A DNA stretch of 64,000 nt from Fistulifera solaris (lineage: Eukaryota): contig AP026141.1 of assembly GCA_030295235.1 (NCBI GenBank), forward strand, positions 558,001 through 622,000, read 5' to 3'. Made by a program: the position numbers and the translations under genes. Below the pieces are notes generated by a model. That model was not told where the DNA came from and searched no databases. It saw only the letters and a program-made list of their open reading frames with translations. This document shows, piece after piece, positions 48,211 through 64,000 of this stretch. The first letter of the stretch is position 1. Each line of letters begins with the position of its first letter.

Positions 48211-49618
48211 TCAAGCATCCCGTGGGGCTTCTTCTTGAAGATTTTCTGTTACACCCGTTTCTTCTCCTCCATTTTCAGTACTGTTGCTGTCTAGCTGTTC
48301 CGTCGCAGAAGCTTGCAAACTAGCCGCAATGGCCATGGCCAACTGCTCTTCTTCCGTCAACCCGGTCATGAACAGGTCACTCGACGTTGACAATAATCCC
48401 AAAGATTGACGTTCTTCCATACTCAACGACATGGTCGCCTCCAGTAAGGCCGCATCATCCGATCCATTTCGATCCTGATCCAAAGCATTCAAAATTCGAT
48501 TCCAATCTCGTCGTGCCGTACCTCCTCCGAGTCGTAACACGCGTGTATTCTCATTCGTATTATTCCGATTCATCAAACTATTCCGATGATGCTCCAATTC
48601 ATTTTGTATCCACCGTTCTTCTTCTTCCATCCGCAGTCGCAGCGCCAAGGGATGTTTTTGTTGTGCTTGCATTTCGGCTTCGAGTTGCCGACGTTCGGAA
48701 GCCGACAGTGCCAAAGCTTCCAGTGGAGGTGACTCGCGTCCTTCGGACGAAATGCTTTCGGATCGTGCTTTCATCAACAAGAATCGGGAATCTTGTTCGA
48801 GTGAGGCACCAAAGATATTGGTGGAGGTGCTGCTGTGGCCGGACGAGGTCATGCCCGAAGCGTGAAAATCGCTGGTGCTGTGCGCCGAAGATGCCGAAAG
48901 AGTCTCTTCGGCCAGTGGTTGGGGACAATTCTCATCGTGAGGAGGTTCGTATTCTTCGGGTGGTGGTTGTTTGTTTTCAATGGCCCGTTCGGGGTCATTC
49001 CGTGCCCGAATCCGTTCTTCTTCGACCGCCCGTTGTTGCAATTCATTATGAGTGAGGCCTTGTTTGATCGATACAACCAATTTCGGATTGTTACAAAACG
49101 GACAGACCGATTTTTCTCGTTGAGGGTGCACTTGCAGATAACATTCCGTACACAATACGGCCTGACAACATTTGGTGACATTGACTTGTCCGTAATTCAG
49201 GAAGCAAATGGGGCATTCATGGTCCGATTCTTTCGTTCTTCGTTCCGTTCCTTTCTGTCGCGCCGCTAATTTTCCGTCTCCGATTAATCGACGAATCACT
49301 TTATCTTCCCAGTGACAAGATGGATACAATCTGTTGTGAAAAGACGATTATGCGAACACTTCAGTGAGAGAAGGAGGATTTATCACGAAAAGATAGAACG
49401 TATAATCGACTTAATTGATAAGAACAAGCGTCCTATCCTATTCCTCAAGCAAGTAACATCCAGAATCTTTTATCACCCTCTGCTCTTTTCGTCCTTAAAG
49501 GAACTTACCCACTCGGTCGACATCGTTCATCCAATTCGAGTCGACTTAAACCGAGAACATTCGATTGCCGTAATCGTCCTCCTATTCTTCCGCTTTCCTG
49601 TGATGCTTTATTTCCCAT
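48211..49618 (-). CDS. SIP5/DA2-like RING protein with C-terminal UIM; intron 49331-49508
   Basis: MGNKAS start, LY....W..KVIRRLI..GKLA, ECPICF......TKCC...LCTECY...CPFC, UIM TEEEQLAMAIAASL. Confidence 0.8.
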
Positions 49619-50165: not shown

Positions 50166-51553
50166 TCATCGTGCACTTCTTTTTTTCCTTCGTTGTCTTC
50201 GTCGACGACCCAAAGTAGTTTGCGTAGTATGCAGTCGATCAATCCATTTATTGATGGTTTCTAGATCCGGATGATTGTGAAAACGCACCAAATCGACTTC
50301 ATCGTTGTATTCTTCATCGCCGTGCCCCGCCGGTACCAACGCCAACAACAGGGGATACCGTTTCAGGTCAAATTCTTTCGCCAAAGCCAAATTCTTGGCG
50401 CGACTTTCACCAAACAAAAACTTATCCCGGTGTTGATACGCCACCGAAGCAAACATGGCACCGGTTTCGTACTTGTCCGACAGTAACAAAATGGCCGCAT
50501 CGTGCTTTTCATTCGATGGATGCAACAATGGCTCAATCAAACGTTCTTGCAAATGTTCGACGGAATTAATGTTGCGAATGTTATCGGTCGGCATGTTCTG
50601 CGTGACAAATTCGTGCAACTGGCGAGCATTGGGCAGTTTCGAGTCGTCGTAGAACGTGTGCTGACCGGCCACGACAAAGGCGAATTGTGGTAAATCTTCT
50701 AAATCAATTCCCAATTCGAGACAGAAATTGGCTTCGTCCTTGTTGCGACCACAATTCATGGCCCCAATCTTGTATGAACCCGAGATTTTGCTGGCCAGCG
50801 TTTCGATCGGACCCTTGGCTTTTTCGCTGCGAGGATGTTGGTAATCGTAAAAAACAATCAACCACAAATATTTGGATTTCTCGTTGGGATATTTCGGTTT
50901 TCCGAGTCGTGTCACGTTGGGGATATCTTTGAACCAGTCCACTTTGGGTGCGGCTGTCTTGGGTTTTCCGGGTCGGGCTCCTCCTCCAAATTGCGCTCCT
51001 CCATCAAAGCCATCAAAATGAACTTTGAAATTACCCGATTCAAAACCACCCATTCCCCCCTGCACCAAACATTTCTTGAAACATGGAGAAAGGATCAAAT
51101 TGGAAGGTATGCCCACCCGCACTTCCTGCATTGAATTTGAAATTGTACGTTTGACCTCCACCGAAACCACCACCACCGGCCGAGCCAAATCCACCCGCAT
51201 TCGGATCCATACCTCGCTCCATCATTTCGAGTCCTTGTTTACCGTATTGATCGTACACTTTGCGTTTGTCGTCATCCGATAAGATCGAATAGGCTTCACT
51301 GACTTTGACAAAGATTTCTTCGGCCTTTTTCTTTTTCGTCGTCGGGTACTTTGTCGGGATGATATTTGAGAGCCAATTTGCGATACGCGGCTTTGATATC
51401 TTTCGCATTGGCCTTTTTGCTGACACCGAGAATGTCGTAATAATCATCCTTGGCGGCAAAATTGGCGTGTCGGGCGGCTTTTCCGTGCGATGAGAGAATT
51501 GTCAAGAACAGGAGAAGCCAGAAGAGCCGTAATGATTGTTGTTGTAATTTCAT
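50166..51553 (-). CDS. Secretory-pathway DnaJ protein with thioredoxin-like domains; frameshifts near 51330 and 51057
   Basis: Signal peptide, DYYDILGV...KYHPDK, G/F-rich linker, then WLIVFY...IGAMNC...FC thioredoxin-like folds; shifts lie in an A-run and a G-run. Confidence 0.8.
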
Positions 51554-52036: not shown

Positions 52037-52651
52037 ATGACTGTAAAGGTAAGTTGATCGCGGTGCAGCGTTTTCGGAGTCATCATCTTCTTCCTTTCAC
52101 TCACGATGATTGGGGGCCTTGCTACGACCGCACACCATAAAGACGAACCAACCGACAAGAAACCCGATGTAGAGGAACCCGATATTCCGTTCGCCGAGGC
52201 ATTGTCTATACCGCCGCAAAATGTGTCAGTCGCCCAAGCAGCTCCTCCGGCACCGACAGCACCGACGGCACCGACGCAGAGTACTACGACAGCAGTGCCC
52301 ACGGGGGCGGCTCCGTCGGGTGGAGTGTATCATATTCCCAATTTGGGACGTCAACCCAAATCGCTCAAGTGTCCGAACTGTCAGCAAGATACGCAAACTG
52401 ACGTGACGAATCAAGTCGACGCTTTTACGTTTGTGTTTTGCGTCATCATCTTCCTTTTGTTTTGGCCTTTGTTCTGGTTGGTAGGTGGGATTGAGCGTTT
52501 TGTCTCTTTTTTTGTGGCGGTGTCACTCTGTCTCACGTGTGGTTCTTGTCGTCTACGCAGCCCTTTGTTCTTCCTCCCTGCAAAGCAGCCGTTCACGTCT
52601 GTCCCAAGTGCCGCAAGCAACTGGGAAAGACCCCCACTCTGCTGTGGCTAA
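52037..52651 (+). CDS. LITAF-domain protein (copy 1); introns about 52049-52142 and 52481-52560; 3' end uncertain
   Basis: Pro-rich N-terminus, CPNC, hydrophobic stretch (LLFWPLFWL|PF), HVCPKC. Confidence 0.75.
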
Positions 52652-54023: not shown

Positions 54024-54659
54024 TCAGTCTACTGTCAAAAAATTCAATCTAGCTTTCCACTCTTCTACCCCCCACCGACTATCCGTATCGGAGACGATCT
54101 TTCCGTGTATCACATGTTTCGGTGTTCCAAATACACCGTAGCTTAAGGCAATTTTGTGTTCATCAAACGCGGGCTTTACTACACTTTCCCAATCATCCAT
54201 TTGTGTGACAAAACCATCAAACGTAAGTTTCTTGTCATCACTATCGCTTGCGTTATCGTCATCCAGCAGACCCGCCTGCTGGGCTATTTTCGCAAAGGCC
54301 TGCTTGATTTCACTTTTTTTGGGATCTGGTAGCGCTCGATTCGAAAAAGTATGCTGATGTTCAAAACACGCGTCAATGAATCGCATTTTGGCATCCAATC
54401 CTTTTTCCCGCTCGATCAACGTAGCTGCACACTGCCCCGGAAAGGCCTGTGCGTGAAAGGCCAAGCTCGTCAAATGAATTTGAAAGTGGTATTGATCCCC
54501 AAATGCCTGTGCTAGAGATTGACGATGCTGGTGCCAATGTTGCCGCGCGTAGGGGCATTGCAAATCCCAAAAGATATGCCACGTCGAGGCTTGGCGTCTC
54601 CTCGAACCGAATGTTGTTGATGATTTTCTCAAAGAGTGAAGAGCTACGAGAACAGTCAT
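54024..54659 (-). CDS. DsbA/thioredoxin-fold protein (copy 1)
   Basis: FWDLQCPYA active-site-like motif and GVFGTP cis-Pro loop. Confidence 0.7.
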   Translation of the reverse strand: MTVLVALHSLRKSSTTFGSRRRQASTWHIFWDLQCPYARQHWHQHRQSLAQAFGDQYHFQIHLTSLAFHAQAFPGQCAATLIEREKGLDAKMRFIDACFEHQHTFSNRALPDPKKSEIKQAFAKIAQQAGLLDDDNASDSDDKKLTFDGFVTQMDDWESVVKPAFDEHKIALSYGVFGTPKHVIHGKIVSDTDSRWGVEEWKARLNFLTVD

Positions 54660-56307
54660 ACTAAAAAGATTGACAACAAATTTTTGTCGTTGTGGTAATT
54701 TTGATGACAATAGAGCAAATGGCTTCCTTTAGAAAATCACAGATAGAATCGAAAAGATGCGAAGCCTCATCATAATTTTGTTTTACGAGTCGCCATGAGG
54801 TTGATTCATGATTCATGACAAAAATGCATTGGCAGAAAATGTTGGCTTGTGCTCGTTTCTCCGTGCCTTGAAAATTTTTGCATTGTTGCGCAAGTCTCGT
54901 CGGCGTAAAAGCAAATGACATAAAATGTGAAAGCTGTTGAAGACCACATTGCATCGCAACACAGACAAACGGAACTCAACATAGATGCTGAACGAAATAA
55001 AAGCAGCATTGGTATTACGGAGTATTCATTCATCGTCTATCATCAAGAATAGGGATTCATGACTGGAGTGCAGTCGTGGATATGTGACTTTACACTTTAG
55101 ACGATAGTATATTGTCGGCTTGCGCCTGGTATGAGGCGTAAAAGTGAATCCGTGAATGATTGTTGATCGTGAATGAATCGCGACGATCGATTGAGGAAGG
55201 AAATAAGCGTTTTGATAATTTTCGTTGTCATTAAAATGTATTGTCGAGGTTATATATTATTATGTTTGATTGTGTTTATTCTTCACCTGGATATTGTTCT
55301 TGATCTAATACGTCACGAGGGTCAGGTCGAGTTGTTGCGAATTTGGAGTCGACTAAGCGACTGCCAATTGGAAAACCGTAAAAACAGAAAACGAAAGTCT
55401 CTTCGATGAAGTTGGTGCTAACGAACAACGAATTGAAAATCAAGTGCCTATCGAGAACACTTACACAGAAAGAACGAAACCAACAGCAGCAAGATTGGTC
55501 AGCGTCTCTGCCGCTCACGTTTTACGACATATTGCATTGTCACATCCTGACCGTCACAGCCTTAGTAATATCAAGACAGTAAATGGAAGCTGCGAAAGCA
55601 TCATCGAGTGGGCCAAAGCTGCAACCTTCTTTCTTCCGTAGATAGTCTTGACGTAATATCTGCAGGAACCTGATACTCTCTCTTGAAAAATGGAATTGGT
55701 ACATCTAACGAAGAATCAGGCGTAAACCAATTCCTTTCTGATAAGGCCTTCAAAGATATCGTAGCTGCATTTCGATGATCTAGTTGCGTGTCGCAAATGC
55801 ACCACGCTTTCTTTTTAGCAACCACAGACGCACCATCCATGTCTACAAACAGAGACTTCGCGCGCTTCGTCTTCACCGCTTCTCGGATTCTATTTTTCTT
55901 GGTAGAGCTGATCATAATACTCGCGGTCTAAAACCAAAAACGTTGAAATCGAAGTTATCGCACGATTCCGGATCACATGCAATGATGTTACGGCATGAAT
56001 AGATGAAAGCGAACGCACGATTCCGGATCGAGTGCTATCTTCATGTCTCCAGAAAATCTGGAAATGTTTTCAACGGGCAGGGTTGTTTTCACGTTTCCAG
56101 AAAGTCCGGGTCATGATATCACTTTCCCAGAAAATCTGGGAGAATGGTGTGTTTTCAATTATTTTACACGCGCTGCGCGGACAGATGAGCGGAAAACAAT
56201 AATAATACAATGAAAACAGCTTGATATATAATAACGGTCGTTCGTTCCTAGTTGAGCTTTCTTTCATATCATTAGTCATTATTTCACGCGCTAATAATCA
56301 AGCAATG

Positions 56308-56941: not shown

Positions 56942-57535
56942 TCATTCTGTCTTTAAGGAATCCAATTTGGTCTTCCATTCATCGACTCCCCACGTGCTTT
57001 CCGTACCAGGAACCAGCTTCCCGTGGATGACATGTTTCGGTGTTCCAAAAACACCATAGCCCAAAGCGATCTTGTGTTCGGCGTACGCGGGCTTGACGAC
57101 GGTTTCCCAATCATCCATTCGTGTGAGAAAATCATCATACGAAAGCTTATTGTCAGCAGGACCACGTAAATCACATTCATCTAATAGTCCCGCCCTTTGT
57201 GCAATATTCGCAAACGCTCGTTTGATTTCACTCTTCGTTGGATCTGGCAAGGCGGTATTCGTGTACTCGTGCTGATGTTCAAAGCACGCATCAATGAACT
57301 GCATTTTCGCGTCGGGTCCTTTCTCTTGCTCCAACAAGTAGGCCGCACACTGACCGGGAAAGGCCTGCGCGTGAAAGGCCAGACTCGTCAAATGAATTTG
57401 AAAGTCGTATTGCTCACGAAACGCGTTCGCCAGAACGTGGCGATGCTGGTGCCAATGTTGGCGCGCGTAGGGGCACTGCAAATCCCAGAAAATGTGCCAA
57501 GTAATCAATGAGGGGCGCATTTTCTTGGCTGGCAT
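56942..57535 (-). CDS. DsbA/thioredoxin-fold protein (copy 2)
   Basis: Highly similar to 54024..54659 (TWHIFWDLQCPYARQHWHQHR, LAFHAQAFPGQCAA, YGVFGTPKHVIHGK). Confidence 0.7.
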   Translation of the reverse strand: MPAKKMRPSLITWHIFWDLQCPYARQHWHQHRHVLANAFREQYDFQIHLTSLAFHAQAFPGQCAAYLLEQEKGPDAKMQFIDACFEHQHEYTNTALPDPTKSEIKRAFANIAQRAGLLDECDLRGPADNKLSYDDFLTRMDDWETVVKPAYAEHKIALGYGVFGTPKHVIHGKLVPGTESTWGVDEWKTKLDSLKTE

Positions 57536-58074
57536 ATACAAATGTGCGCTTCGGTTTCTTCGAGTTATCAAGTTATTTGTTTGTTTACTATTCGATATGC
57601 TTCTCGACGATGGAAAAATTGTGAAAAGCCGACGAATCGATGTTTCGTTGAAATCCGGAACTGGATCGGAAATAAATCGGGAAAATTGTGAATGAATTTA
57701 GGCCAAAAGACACCATACCGTTGTAAAAATGTTATTTCTAACATTCCGTATTCCTCTAGAGATTCTCTCAAATATTACCAAGGAAGAAATAATATCCGAG
57801 GAATTCATAGAACAAGGAGGCTACAAAAAGACCGGAGGCCCATTTCGAGTTCGGATCGGGTTTTAGTGTGCGAAGTGGGAAGTGCGCCGATAAACGAAGA
57901 AAGAAAAAACGATGTTGCGGAGTATCGAGGTAAAAAGCAGTTTTAAGGTATGTACTTATTCCACGGAAATTTCTCGTCCCCAGTGAAGCAACGAGACGTA
58001 TCCTCAGACCAACTGATGAATAGGATTACATAATCTGACGCCATTTTAAACCGAATTGGTGTAACTTCACTCAC

Positions 58075-59531: not shown

Positions 59532-60781
59532 ATGAACTCCTTCCATCGCTCTCCTCGACTTTTGTCGAAACGGCGCTCCTCTTCTTCTATGTCGCAAATG
59601 GATTCGGGAAGTCTTGTCTTTGCAGGATTTGCTCTTTTGCGACGGGTTTGTTTGTCATGACGTGCTTGGTGTTGCATCGGCACCTTTCATCGAGTCCTCT
59701 TTCTTCGACATTATCACTACGCAGAACTCATTTGACCCCGTCTCATTCCTCCAGCTTTACAACGACGACACTACCTGTCCGCTATAGCATGACACCACCG
59801 GCAGATGTACCGTACGACATTTATCATTGTCCGGATACACCACCACCCCATTATCCGTACGAATGGAATCTATTGCAAGTTCTCGATCACTGGCCGATCG
59901 ATACTACGGCCGTGCCTGCCTACTGGCATCAAGGATTATGTGTTTGGGATGCCCGCATTCACACTCAACAGATTGAAACCTACTTGAAAGCGGAAGTGCC
60001 GTTTGTGTTGCAACATCATCCGGACGTCCTGGCGACGGCGCAACGTTGGTCGACGCCCGGCTATTTGCATCAGTTACTGGCCAATAAAAAACAAACCACG
60101 GAACACAGCTCCAACAATCAGTTTTTATTTTGGAGACCCTTGTCGTTTATGCGTCAAATTCCGAAATCCACCATCGATCATGTCGATTTGACGTTTGCGG
60201 AATGGTACGACAAAGCCCAAGCTTTGCAAACGACTTCCGAACCCCAAGCGACGCAAGAACATTGGTACTTTCGCATCAATGGGATCCAACGGATGCAGGA
60301 AAATCTGTTTTTGTATGACGAATTACCGTACTTTCACCCCCAAAAGTCGTGGTTCATGGTGGAACCGGAACAAGAACGGGGCATCAATTGTCGATTCGGT
60401 ATGAAAGGGGCGTTTGCGGCGTCGCATTTTGATCCGACGCGGAATTGGATTACGCTGCTGGGTGGAACGCGACGGTATCTGTTGAGCAATTACACACAAT
60501 GCTCCCATTTGCAACTCTATCCCATCGATCATCCTTCGCAACGTCATTCGATGGTCGATTGGAGTCGGCCTCGCCAATACTTACAAGAGCACCCCGAAAC
60601 ACAAGGCTTCGCCCAAGCAACGGTCAATGAAGTTGTGTTACAAGCGGGCGATGCCTTGTATTTGCCGACTTCGTGGTTTCATGCGATTGTTTCTCTCGAT
60701 ATCAATTATCAATGCAATGCCCGGTCGGGTGTGACGCCGGAAAGTTTTCCTACTTTGCGAGAATGTGGCTTTGGGAACTAA
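59532..60781 (+). CDS. JmjC/cupin-like 2-oxoglutarate Fe(II) oxygenase with N-terminal membrane anchor; frameshift near 59638, start uncertain
   Basis: HxD...H triad (ASHFD...LYLPTSWFHAI); restoring one T gives the hydrophobic anchor LVFAGFALFATGLFVMTCLVL. Confidence 0.8.
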
Positions 60782-60998: not shown

Positions 60999-61324
60999 TT
61001 AGTTCAAAGCACGTCCTGGGCGGCATTCGACGCGTTCATTCTTCTTGCCTCCAAAGAAACGGCCTTGACGAAGACGACGCCCCGGACACGGATCTTCCGG
61101 CGCGTCATCGTCACAGAACCACAAGAAGGGTAGAAGTTCACACCACGTCCAGTGGAAGGTGTCTTCGGCACAGACACCGCGGGCGGCGACTGCGAGACAA
61201 AGAGAACGAATGAGTGTTGTAATCGAACGACGTACTGCTGTGATATTGTCGTTCATACGAAGAATCGAGGTCACTTACAGGCCAGGCTAAAGACGAGAAG
61301 GAGCGGCAAGTGCTGGATCTGCAT
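60999..61324 (-). CDS. Small secreted Trp/Cys-rich peptide precursor A (78 aa); intron 61190-61278
   Basis: Splicing a GTAAGT...TCGCAG phase-1 intron gives MQIQHLPLLLVFSLAFAARGVCA-EDTFHWTWCELLPFLWFCDDDAPEDPCPG-RRLR-QGRFFGGKKNERVECRPGRALN. Confidence 0.75.
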
Positions 61325-61818
61325 GAGGAATACGAAGTTGTTATAATGACAGCGTTTCTTTGTTGTTGTCCAAACAGACGCGAGGCTTTTATTTTGAAAT
61401 CTTTTCGAGCGCGCCGCATGCGAATTTCAAAAGCACGAAGTCTACACAAAAATTTTTGTAAGAAATGTACTTGTACCGAAAACGTTTGGTGCCCTTCGGA
61501 ATGCCAATGGGTCTCATTCATCTTTGAGTATATGCCCGAATTGTAGATTTGTGCCTGTACGAACAAAAAGACACTGGGATGACGTATGACGTCTCCCCTA
61601 TGGTTCGAAGCTCAAGATGCGACTAAAAAGGTGACGACTGACGACGTGACAAGTGCTAGAGAGTCTATAGTAGGCACCTCCTAATACTCGTACCCTGAGC
61701 CACCACAAATTGAAATAGGCCGACTACTTTGCTTAATGGAAGCAGCTTCATTTACTTTTTTCCAATTATATTGACGTCCTTCCCCAAATGTACGCGGACT
61801 TTTCAATAAAGCGCCACT

Positions 61819-62209
61819 TTAGCGATCGCAGCCTCCATCGTCGTCGTCACCGTTGCATATAAAGGGTAGAATTTCACACCACGTCCAAGAAAAACCATTT
61901 GATTCTTCGTTGGATCGACGTCGTCGTCGCAAGGCACGAGCGCCACAGGGAGGTTCCTCGTCCTTGCAAGCTCGGGTAAACGGAAAGATTTCGCACCAGC
62001 TCCAGCTGAACGTATCCTCTTCGGCAAAAACGCTGTGTGCTGCGACTGCGAAAGGAGATTCGACATTGAAAGGTGCAGGGATAAGGGCTAAATGACGTTC
62101 GAAGTGGAGAATCAAGACAGTAATTCGACGTTTCTTTCAAACATGTGTTTCACTTACACGCTACAACAAAAAGAACTAGTAGCGGGAGATTCTGGATTCG
62201 AACAATCAT
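61819..62209 (-). CDS. Small secreted Trp/Cys-rich peptide precursor B (92 aa, two cores); intron 62046-62157
   Basis: Same intron position and phase as A; product MIVRIQNLPLLVLFVVAFAAHSVFA-EEDTFSWSWCEIFPFTRACKDEEPPCGA-RALRRRRR-SNEESNGFSWTWCEILPFICNGDDDDGGCDR. Confidence 0.78.
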
Positions 62210-62591
62210 AGCTCTGTCAAGGTGTTATGATGCTGATGATTGAAAACGTTTGTCGAGAGAGATTTTTGTCCGGATCGCACAGAGCGTCGAAAAATGAAGG
62301 GCCAGCGAAAACGCTGATGACGAAACAGGCGGAATAGCCTACATAAAGAAGAATAGTGCCATTTAGAAGCGAATACCAATGACTGCATCACTTATGTCCT
62401 ATGACCCGAAAGTGGGAAGAATGAGGCCCTATGCATTTTCTGAATATAATAATTGGCTGACGACGACTCAACACTCAACTCGTTTGCAGTCCCGACTCCC
62501 GACCGTGTCGACAGTGTCGACAGCATGCAATAAATGAAAGAGAGCATGATGAAACGAAAGTAACAAGAAATTCCAATAGCGAACAGTTGCA

Positions 62592-63125
62592 ATTCCGGTA
62601 ATTCTGGAAAATCGGTGATTGCCGTCAAACAGAATTTCTATAACTTTCCAGAAATTCTGGAATTGGTGTTTGCGATCGTAGCAAAACTTTTCGGTCGTTC
62701 CAGAAAATTTAATATCGATGTTTGCGATCATACAGAAATATTGCGGCCGTTCCAGGAATTCTGGAATCGGTTTGTGCGATCATACAGAAATTCTCTGGCA
62801 TTTCCAGAAATTCTGGAAAATCGGTGATTGCCGTCAAACAGAATTTCTGTACCACTCCAGAAATTCTGGAATTGGTGTTTGCGATCATAGCAAAACTTTT
62901 CGGTCGTCCAGAAAATTTAATATCGATGATTGCGATCATACAGAAATATTGCGGCCGTTCCAGGAATTCTGGAATCGGTTTGTGCGATCATACAGAAATT
63001 CTCTGGCATTTCCAGAAATTCTGGAAAATCGGTGATTGCCGTCAAACAGAATTTCTGTACCACTCCAGAAATTCTGGAATTGGTGTTTGCGATCATAGCA
63101 AAACGTTTACGTCGATCCAGAAAAT
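62592..63125. repeat. Tandem repeat: about 2.5 copies of a 208-209-bp unit built from four ~52-bp monomers
   Basis: TCGGTGATTGCCGTCAAACAGAATTTC starts at 62612, 62821 and 63029; TTCC(A/G)G anchors at 62593, 62646, 62698, 62750 and 62802. Confidence 0.92.
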
Positions 63126-63185: not shown

Positions 63186-64000
63186 TCACTTTCTGTCAGC
63201 TTTGCGAGCCGACGCATGGCTGGCTTCGAGCAGTCGAAAAGCAATTGATGCGACCAAAATGATCGCACTTCCAAGCCAGCTAATATACCACTCAAAGACA
63301 CTCAAGAAAAGAATGCTGGCTACCCACAGCACAATCTGTAACGGCGTACCCATTTTTAAAAAAGTCGGTGTACTTGTAACCTCCCGGTCCGTAAATCAGC
63401 AAGTTTGTCGTATAACCATAAGGTGTCATGAAACTTGCGGAAGCACCAGCATGAGAGCGTAACTCATCAGAGATCGATCAATACCCGCACTTTCCGCAGC
63501 ATTCATGGCAACAGGGAAGAGCAAAGCAGCAGCGGCGTTGTTTGTCAAGACACTGCTGATCAAAAACGTCGCAAAATAAACTGCACCTAACAAACCTGCA
63601 TCGCCGATTCCCATCGCAGTGCCAACGTCGACAAGGAAATTTGCAATAATGTCTGCGACACCTGAGTTCATGAGAGCTGTACCGATACCGAACGCCGACG
63701 CAATGATCACGTAAATATCCCAGTTGACTGAGTCTCTGGCCTCCTGCTCCGACATAATTCCGATTGCCACCATGCAAAAAGAAGCAACAAGACCACAAAC
63801 AACCAACTCTGCTACACCGGCGGAGAATACAGCCAACATCGTCACGGTGATAATGAGGGCTGGAATAAGCAACGATAGACGAGGAGGGGCCGAATCTTCA
63901 ACCTCTGCGAGCAGTGCAAACGACCGGTCATGTTCAGCGGTTTTCGTTATAAAAGACGGACCGGCTTCGAGCAACAAAACATCACCGGCTTGCAATTTAA
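63186..64000 (-). CDS. SLC13/SLT-type sodium:sulfate or carboxylate symporter, 3' part; frameshifts near 63447 and 63357
   Basis: [19 protein letters not shown], then (G)[28 protein letters not shown] in the shifted frame; runs off the window end. Confidence 0.85.

Follow-up and report, generated by a model that had tools for sequence, protein, structure and literature searches.

A tandem gene pair of Fistulifera solaris predicted to encode small secreted Trp/Cys repeat proteins with diatom-type processing sites

Fistulifera solaris is an oil-producing diatom. We describe here a tandem pair of small genes, termed A and B, on the minus strand of a 64-kb stretch of its genome (contig AP026141.1, positions 558,001 to 622,000; hereafter the window, from the first letter of which all coordinates are counted), and we compare the pair with the systems that it resembles. 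The closest known architecture is that of Sil1p from Cylindrotheca fusiformis and of the silacidins, in which a signal peptide is followed by short repeated units with ends of the R-x-L type; the same layout is predicted here from the genes. The units are rich in Lys and Ser and polycationic in silaffins, whereas silacidins are rich in Ser, Asp and Glu. A second likeness is to the multi-copy precursors processed by kexin or furin, such as yeast alpha-factor, the fungal KEX2-processed repeat proteins and the animal prohormones, which also combine a signal peptide with repeated cores and with polybasic sites between the cores (RRRRR and RR.R in the present genes). According to passages of a review (PMC4557024), RRIL/RRNL is trimmed from the ends of the Sil1p repeats and is missing in mature silaffins, and R-x-L is found at the C-terminus of the repeats in frustulins, cingulins and silacidins. 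The same passages propose R-x-L as a possible general endopeptidase motif of diatom precursors, and they back a first-pass annotation of this DNA in which the motif had been taken as a diatom processing site.

Two further systems share single features with the pair. Excerpts of two reviews (PMC12352721, PMC12843257) present SIP+ of Seminavis robusta as the sole sex-inducing diatom pheromone with a solved structure, and describe it as a small modified disulfide peptide: it is an all-L heptapeptide in which a disulfide ring (two Cys, Ala and Leu) precedes two hydroxyprolines and a sulfated L-threo-beta-hydroxy-Asp. Its gene and biosynthesis are given there as unresolved. SIP+ and the products of A and B are alike in being small diatom peptides with a disulfide and with acidic and Pro residues, secretion and the disulfide being predictions for A and B. 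In contrast, SIP+ as described in these excerpts has only 7 residues, with a four-residue ring and then Hyp-Hyp-Asp(OSO3), whereas the units of A and B are four times longer and begin with a Trp-rich head. The plastid pre-proteins of the ASAFAP type resemble A and B at the N-terminus, which is hydrophobic and leads to an A|FAA site, with Ala at -1 and with Phe at +1.

Taken together, the results fit a real, constrained and lineage-restricted pair of small Trp/Cys/acidic repeat proteins that are predicted to be ER-targeted (ER, endoplasmic reticulum) and that carry diatom-type processing sites. We give a probability of about 0.5 to the full form of this reading, in which the tandem-duplicated, lineage-restricted pair would encode small pre-pro-proteins directed to the ER, cut at R-x-L and basic sites, and exported. 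The two genes occupy 60999..62209, with start ATGs at 62209 (B) and 61324 (A), and their parts are as follows.

61819..62209, minus strand: gene B (FisN_19Hu290), start to stop codon, 92 amino acids; spliced translation equal to the deposited protein
62158..62209, minus strand: coding part of gene B exon 1, 17 codons and 1 base; encodes the N- and hydrophobic regions of an N-terminus that resembles a signal peptide
62046..62157, minus strand: gene B intron, phase 1, 112 nt, GTAAGT...TCGCAG
61819..62045, minus strand: gene B exon 2, stop included
60999..61324, minus strand: gene A (FisN_19Hu289), start to stop codon, 78 amino acids; spliced translation equal to the deposited protein
61279..61324, minus strand: coding part of gene A exon 1, 15 codons plus 1 base
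61190..61278, minus strand: gene A intron, phase 1, 89 nt, GTAAGT...TCGCAG, at the Phe codon shared with gene B
60999..61189, minus strand: gene A exon 2

Both introns have canonical splice sites (GTAAGT/CAG) and interrupt the Phe codon (T|TC) of an A-F-A-A stretch that is common to the two genes. The spliced products were identical, letter for letter, to GAX19704.1 (FisN_19Hu290, 92 amino acids) and GAX19703.1 (FisN_19Hu289, 78 amino acids) of F. solaris. The first-pass annotation was confirmed in its description of two tandem minus-strand genes with a phase-1 intron at the same codon. It had also been right that the list of open reading frames misses the true starts, as the second exons lie in stop-to-stop frames without an ATG ahead of the cores. 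Its description of the genes as hidden did not hold, because both are already deposited with exactly these splice models. Each bears the name 'hypothetical protein', and FisN_19Hu289 is called 'Secreted protein' in UniRef. What is new is the reading of the gene content, the genes themselves being annotated already.

The acceptor site of gene B is doubled, TCGCAG|TCGCAG (62040-62051, minus strand), so that a second in-frame acceptor lies at 62040, 6 nt downstream. This tandem acceptor would permit products of 92 or 90 amino acids that differ by two signal-peptide residues. A stop-to-stop frame of 157 codons (61138-61611, minus strand) overlaps the upstream region, exon 1 and the intron of gene A in another frame and is probably non-coding.

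The second exons contain three copies in total of the unit F-x-W-[ST]-W-C-E-[IL]-[LF]-P-F-x(1-3)-C-acidic(6-8)-C, two in B and one in A, each with three Cys, and we read them as they had been described; the same is true of RALRRRRR in B and of RRLR and the GRALN end in A. The units and the segments that border them are the following.

61930..62022, minus strand: core B1, 31 amino acids, net charge -4, 3 Cys, C-terminal R-A-L
61915..61929, minus strand: RRRRR, the polybasic linker that separates cores B1 and B2, residues 57-61
61822..61914, minus strand: core B2, 31 amino acids, net charge -7, 3 Cys, at the protein end (..C-D-R, stop)
61080..61166, minus strand: core A1, 29 amino acids, net charge -8, 3 Cys
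61068..61079, minus strand: basic site RRLR (contains R-R-L) after core A1; RR = residues 53-54 of A
61002..61067, minus strand: basic tail of gene A, 22 amino acids, net charge +4, one Cys, terminal P-G-R-A-L-N

In the alignment of the three units, nine columns were invariant (F, W, W, C, E, P, F, D and C), with Cys spacings of 9/7, 7/9 and 9/9 residues per unit and a core composition marked by Trp, Phe and Cys together with Asp and Glu. The units are homologous: a BLASTP comparison of the second-exon products of A and B gave an E-value of 9e-12, and the second core of B gave 1e-07. When W-x-W-C-E-x-[LF]-P-F was back-translated, it matched the window three times against 0.00 matches expected, and none of 100 shuffles contained any; a further copy of the core was not found in the six frames of the window. 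The W-S/T-W-C part of the unit fits W-x-x-C, the consensus for C-mannosylation.

The differences between the three copies are mostly synonymous. Over the 11-codon motif, the non-synonymous change per site (pN) was 0.11-0.20, compared with a synonymous change (pS) of 0.49-1.26. In addition, the introns and flanks of A and B have diverged past easy alignment, while the position and phase of the intron are retained. As evident from these two observations, the copies are old and the core peptide sequence is under purifying selection, and this is the main argument that A and B are real coding genes.

The Trp/Cys head is present in the units of A and B and not in Sil1p or the silacidins. In the libraries searched, the units showed no sequence similarity to anything else, and the unit compositions of the silaffin and silacidin types (Lys/Ser-rich or Ser/Asp/Glu-rich) were not found in these units. 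In comparison with the kexin/furin precursors, A and B hold just one or two cores, which are strongly acidic and have three Cys each.

The N-termini of both proteins begin with a basic residue or His and a 13-residue hydrophobic run, followed by V-F-A|E in B and V-C-A|E in A before the acidic core. With small residues at -3 and -1 (V-x-A), this is the classical n/h/c layout of a signal peptide, as read by eye from the sequence, and the best 19-residue Kyte-Doolittle windows (2.05 and 1.69) lie at the extreme N-terminus. At the other borders, R-x-L is located 3-4 residues past the last Cys in three of the four segments, in the contexts G-A-R-A-L (B1), P-G-R-R-L (A1) and P-G-R-A-L (end of the A tail). 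Sites with two or more basic residues also lie at the core borders, as they do in kexin/furin-type precursors, namely RRRRR after B1 and the RR of RRLR after A1. The placing of R-x-L and polybasic sites behind the units resembles that in the silaffin and silacidin precursors, and processing to acidic disulfide peptides of about 30 residues is therefore the best reading.

We infer the following route of ER entry, cleavage and export. The proteins would enter the ER by means of a cleavable N-terminal signal peptide, the probable ends of which are the V-F-A|E and V-C-A|E sites. The mature part would then consist of one or two units of about 27 residues, in which the aromatic head F-x-W-x-W-C-E-[IL]-[LF]-P-F precedes an acidic loop closed by two Cys. 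Within the secretory pathway, the cuts at G/A-R-x-L and at the basic residues would be made by the RXL endoprotease of diatoms, by a kexin-like protease, or by both. The products would be acidic disulfide peptides of 29-31 residues, either free, dimerised by the odd Cys, or two-chain, and their destination would be outside the cell, in the medium or in the organic/silica wall. An extracellular binding or signalling role for these peptides is a guess. A classical cationic antimicrobial peptide is unlikely, because the units are strongly negative and only the tail of gene A is cationic. Since it retains one Cys and P-G-R-A-L, this tail may be the remnant of a second unit; the alignment of its DNA with that of core B2 was weak.

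Several observations weigh against the reading as processed and exported pre-pro-proteins. Core B2 lacks R-x-L and ends in ..C-D-R and a stop. The mature proteins have even numbers of Cys (6 in B and 4 in A), compared with 3 in each released unit, and this parity would better suit an intact product, or one that is cut but linked into two chains by disulfides, than free single units. A compact fold was not predicted: single-sequence AlphaFold2 gave a mean predicted local distance difference test (pLDDT) score of 56.8 and was confident only for the N-terminal helix, and the Atlas models scored 0.54 and 0.42. In both proteins, the best site in an ASAFind scan was A|FAA, with totals of 7.05 (B) and 6.79 (A), rather than the V-x-A site. 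The evidence for conservation comes from three paralogous units of one genome, and no orthologue was found in the searched sets. Finally, the gene models and exon junctions are predictions at the level of DNA. The first-pass interpretation is supported in part; its picture of released peptides of about 30 residues with a free Cys is weakened by the Cys parity of 6 and 4 and by the A|FAA site, both of which it had overlooked.

The even number of Cys is what would be expected of uncut small secreted disulfide-rich proteins, the alternative that survives best, although we still regard it as unlikely. Here, the basic stretch would be a surface loop or linker, and all Cys would be paired in mature forms of 67 (B) and 55 (A) residues; in a variant, a single cut would leave two chains held together by disulfides. 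The tail of gene A supplies exactly the one Cys that is needed for parity, and the want of R-x-L in core B2 agrees with an uncut chain. The location of R-x-L and basic residues exactly at the unit borders argues for cleavage, however, since the diatom precursors covered in the passages of PMC4557024 are known to be cut at such places. It also counts against uncut proteins that the units are self-contained repeats and that the models predicted no compact fold. In the Atlas structure comparison, all rows had TM scores below 0.5, or of 0.5 over just 37-48 residues. The Atlas feature scores gave nothing for B and 0.76 for A, which is below the chance level stated for the tool.

The A|FAA site raises the question of a plastid route, to which we assign a low probability. 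In this case, signal peptidase would cut at V-V-A|F-A-A in B and at S-L-A|F-A-A in A, as in an ASAFAP-like motif, and the destination would be the complex plastid or the periplastidial compartment. The scan used the published matrix (PMC4329603, supplementary file 5) with its 25-residue score and cleavage positions after residues 10-31; the ASAFind criterion also requires a SignalP site at most 2 residues from the motif. A|FAA had the top score in both proteins, and the transit part of the score was 4.43 in B and 4.12 in A, above the published cut-off of 2. Parts of PMC4329603 name Phe at +1 as the key determinant of diatom plastid import, and the A-F-A-A motif is kept in both paralogues, across the intron. 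However, Phe alone contributes 3.25 of the transit score, and the other 19 positions reach just 1.18 (B) and 0.87 (A), compared with 2.32 for the PtOEE1 example in a table of PMC4329603. The 20 residues that follow the cut in A|FAA (+1 to +20) are net negative (4 acidic and 0 basic in B, 3 acidic and 1 basic in A), whereas real transit peptides are net positive and, according to the same parts of PMC4329603, the plastid route needs this positive charge. A classical n/h/c signal peptide that ends in V-x-A eight residues further on fits equally well.

To place the pair among known proteins, we compared it with sequence collections of several kinds. The second-exon products of A and B matched no Pfam-A family at E <= 10, and the profile of the core matched no sequence of the Protein Data Bank (PDB) at E <= 10, which agrees with the initial impression that the units belong to no known family. 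A word-seeded protein search of 5.8 billion clusters returned only the two proteins themselves (one candidate of one in each case). An exhaustive HMMER search of 1,835,955,588 representatives with the core profile returned three proteins at E <= 0.001, two of which were the query's own. No longer protein carrying the core unit was found among these 1.84 billion representatives, and the idea that A and B are fragments of a larger domain accordingly received no support.

The third HMMER match (P0008, E 1.9e-4) is a 188-residue metagenome protein with three near-identical tandem units of 40 residues, each of which contains a basic run followed by an 8-residue string identical to part of the gene A motif. 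We rejected it as a relative and judged it a chance match, as it covers only 11 profile positions (5-15), without the first Trp and without both later Cys, and its score is inflated by the near-identical tandem units. By a rough estimate from residue frequencies, a few copies of such an 8-mer would arise by chance in 2.4e11 residues.

Pattern scans at the DNA level gave similar results. In metagenome contigs, none of 18 matches had the Phe together with both later Cys in an open frame; Phe at -2 was present in 3 of the 18 and the later Cys pair in none, and 15 of the 18 had a stop within -20..+35 codons. Likewise, 0 of 16 matches in prokaryote genomes had all of these features. The word 'family' used in the first-pass annotation was therefore too strong, as there are two genes and no relative in the protein, metagenome-contig or prokaryote-contig searches. 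Within the protein representatives, Pfam, PDB and the metagenome and prokaryote contigs, A and B are an orphan gene pair, with the limits that the scans at the DNA level did not extend to a collection of diatom genomes and that gene callers readily overlook short genes with introns. In the literature, the core motif strings were absent from the paper texts searched, and nothing relevant on frustule or secretome proteomics of Fistulifera was among the 12 entries listed. One supplement file of PMC5935921 contained none of four neighbouring gene identifiers and no FisN_19H or FisN_19L string; the text of that paper uses fso:g numbers.

A second copy of gene A is probably present in the genome. 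In run X1, the region 61162-61309 was represented by the version of the window (depth 16.3) and by a second contig variant (depth 14.6). The second contig shared 30 letters with the start of gene A exon 2, had an intron region of 90 letters versus 76 and, over 42 letters of exon 1, showed 5 differences; on the minus strand, the start codon and the first codons were kept, with a synonymous change. The oxygenase gene beside gene A, described below, has an 89%-identical partner, FisN_19Lh288. Together, these two findings point to a homoeolog of gene A that is missing from the protein set, and the second contig is probably an unannotated fragment of it on the other subgenome. By our own reading of the identifiers, the 'u' in 19Hu289 and 19Hu290, as opposed to the 'h' in 19Lh288, probably denotes that a gene has no annotated partner.

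As orphans, A and B could also be functionless open reading frames, silent or barely expressed and called by a gene predictor, in which the repeat reflects recent local duplication only. We rate this as improbable, to the same degree as a plastid route. In its favour, no homologue was found in the other organisms searched, and the gene models rest on DNA: the contigs of runs X1-X3 span introns and spacers as DNA does and are uninformative on splicing and expression, with X2 and X3 reaching the 3' flank only. The FisN gene identifiers were also absent from the paper texts searched. On the other hand, the synonymous sites of the motif are near saturation while its residues are kept, as is expected of old, constrained copies. 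Both frames are intact, the position and phase of the intron persist in spite of the diverged intron sequence, and the second X1 variant retains the start codon.

The weakest alternative concerns the gene that converges on gene A.

59532..60781, plus strand: Cupin_8/JmjC 2-oxoglutarate oxygenase, convergent with gene A, stop codons 217 nt apart; context only

This protein matched Pfam Cupin_8 (3.2e-19), its nearest PDB sequence was FIH (8e-13), and H-x-D and a later His were visible. FIH is an Asn/Asp hydroxylase. We found 294 relatives at E <= 1e-5, including proteins from Mayamaea, Nitzschia, Pseudo-nitzschia and the MMETSP transcriptomes; two more of them, from Seminavis robusta, bear the name 'Hypoxia-inducible factor 1-alpha inhibitor'. 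Eight relatives were fetched; all 7 of the longer ones (430-519 amino acids) have a basic N-tail and a hydrophobic anchor (Kyte-Doolittle 2.1-2.9), and a 332-residue F. solaris homoeolog model has no anchor. The window codes for a homologous anchor upstream of the start that this 332-residue model uses, and the model was thus probably cut short at its N-terminus. The oxygenase probably belongs to the secretory pathway as a membrane-anchored protein, with a topology taken from the positive-inside rule, and it is a candidate lumenal protein hydroxylase of diatoms. Its likely start codon, the ATG at 59532, opens a basic frame of 42 codons, offset by one base from the main oxygenase frame (weak similarity, E 0.33); the offset could stem from a misassembled T run, from a tiny intron or from a true frameshift.

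In this alternative, A and B would be precursors of modified signalling peptides of the Seminavis robusta pheromone kind, with Asp/Pro-rich Cys loops hydroxylated by the adjacent FIH-like oxygenase in the secretory pathway. The hydroxyprolines and the sulfated beta-hydroxy-Asp beside the disulfide ring of SIP+, as given in the excerpts of PMC12352721 and PMC12843257, speak for this, as do the Asp and Pro between the Cys of the A and B loops, the convergent neighbour 217 nt away with FIH as its nearest solved structure, and the basic N-tail and membrane anchor of its longer diatom homologues. We nevertheless consider it very improbable, since the oxygenase is not a dedicated partner, its family being widespread among diatoms and the peptides not, since the adjacency of two eukaryotic genes is weak evidence, and since the residue arrangement of SIP+ is absent from both proteins. 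The stronger form, in which A and B would be a new class of secreted, disulfide-looped acidic signalling peptides whose loops are hydroxylated by this oxygenase in the ER/Golgi lumen, has just as slim a chance.

If A and B are processed and exported as proposed, a new Trp/Cys unit framed by R-x-L and basic sites would widen the peptide range of the diatom secretory pathway, and it would offer concrete masses to seek in extracts of the medium and the wall, in a species that is transformable and used in industry. The present value of this orphan pair in one genome lies in a cheap and well-defined test, and not in an established discovery. If the hydroxylase reading were true, the locus would be a small ribosomal-peptide locus in a diatom and a lead to the biosynthesis of peptide pheromones such as SIP+. 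Detection of the peptides in the medium or wall, or of hydroxyl or sulfate groups on them, would make the pair much more interesting.

The surroundings of the pair contain further genes. Two DSBA-like thioredoxin-fold paralogues (54027-54728 and 56945-57697, both on the minus strand) are 73% identical over 186 residues. We rejected them as folding helpers, as they have a single-Cys C-P-Y-A in place of C-x-x-C and no visible signal peptide; their Pfam scores of 21.3 and 24.6 are under the curated cut-off of 25.6. Other frames with Pfam matches are located at 63429-63998 (minus strand), 50169-51221 (minus strand), 52061-52648 (plus strand) and 48214-49347 (minus strand); they match the end of a CitMHS transporter (1.4e-18), Thioredoxin_6 weakly, a LITAF-like zinc ribbon and a RING finger, respectively, and look unrelated to A and B. 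Upstream of gene B, a tandem repeat of 208 bp (62589-63125; 2.6 copies, 95% matches, inner period of 52 bp) lies 380 bp from the start codon and yields spurious open frames on the plus strand.

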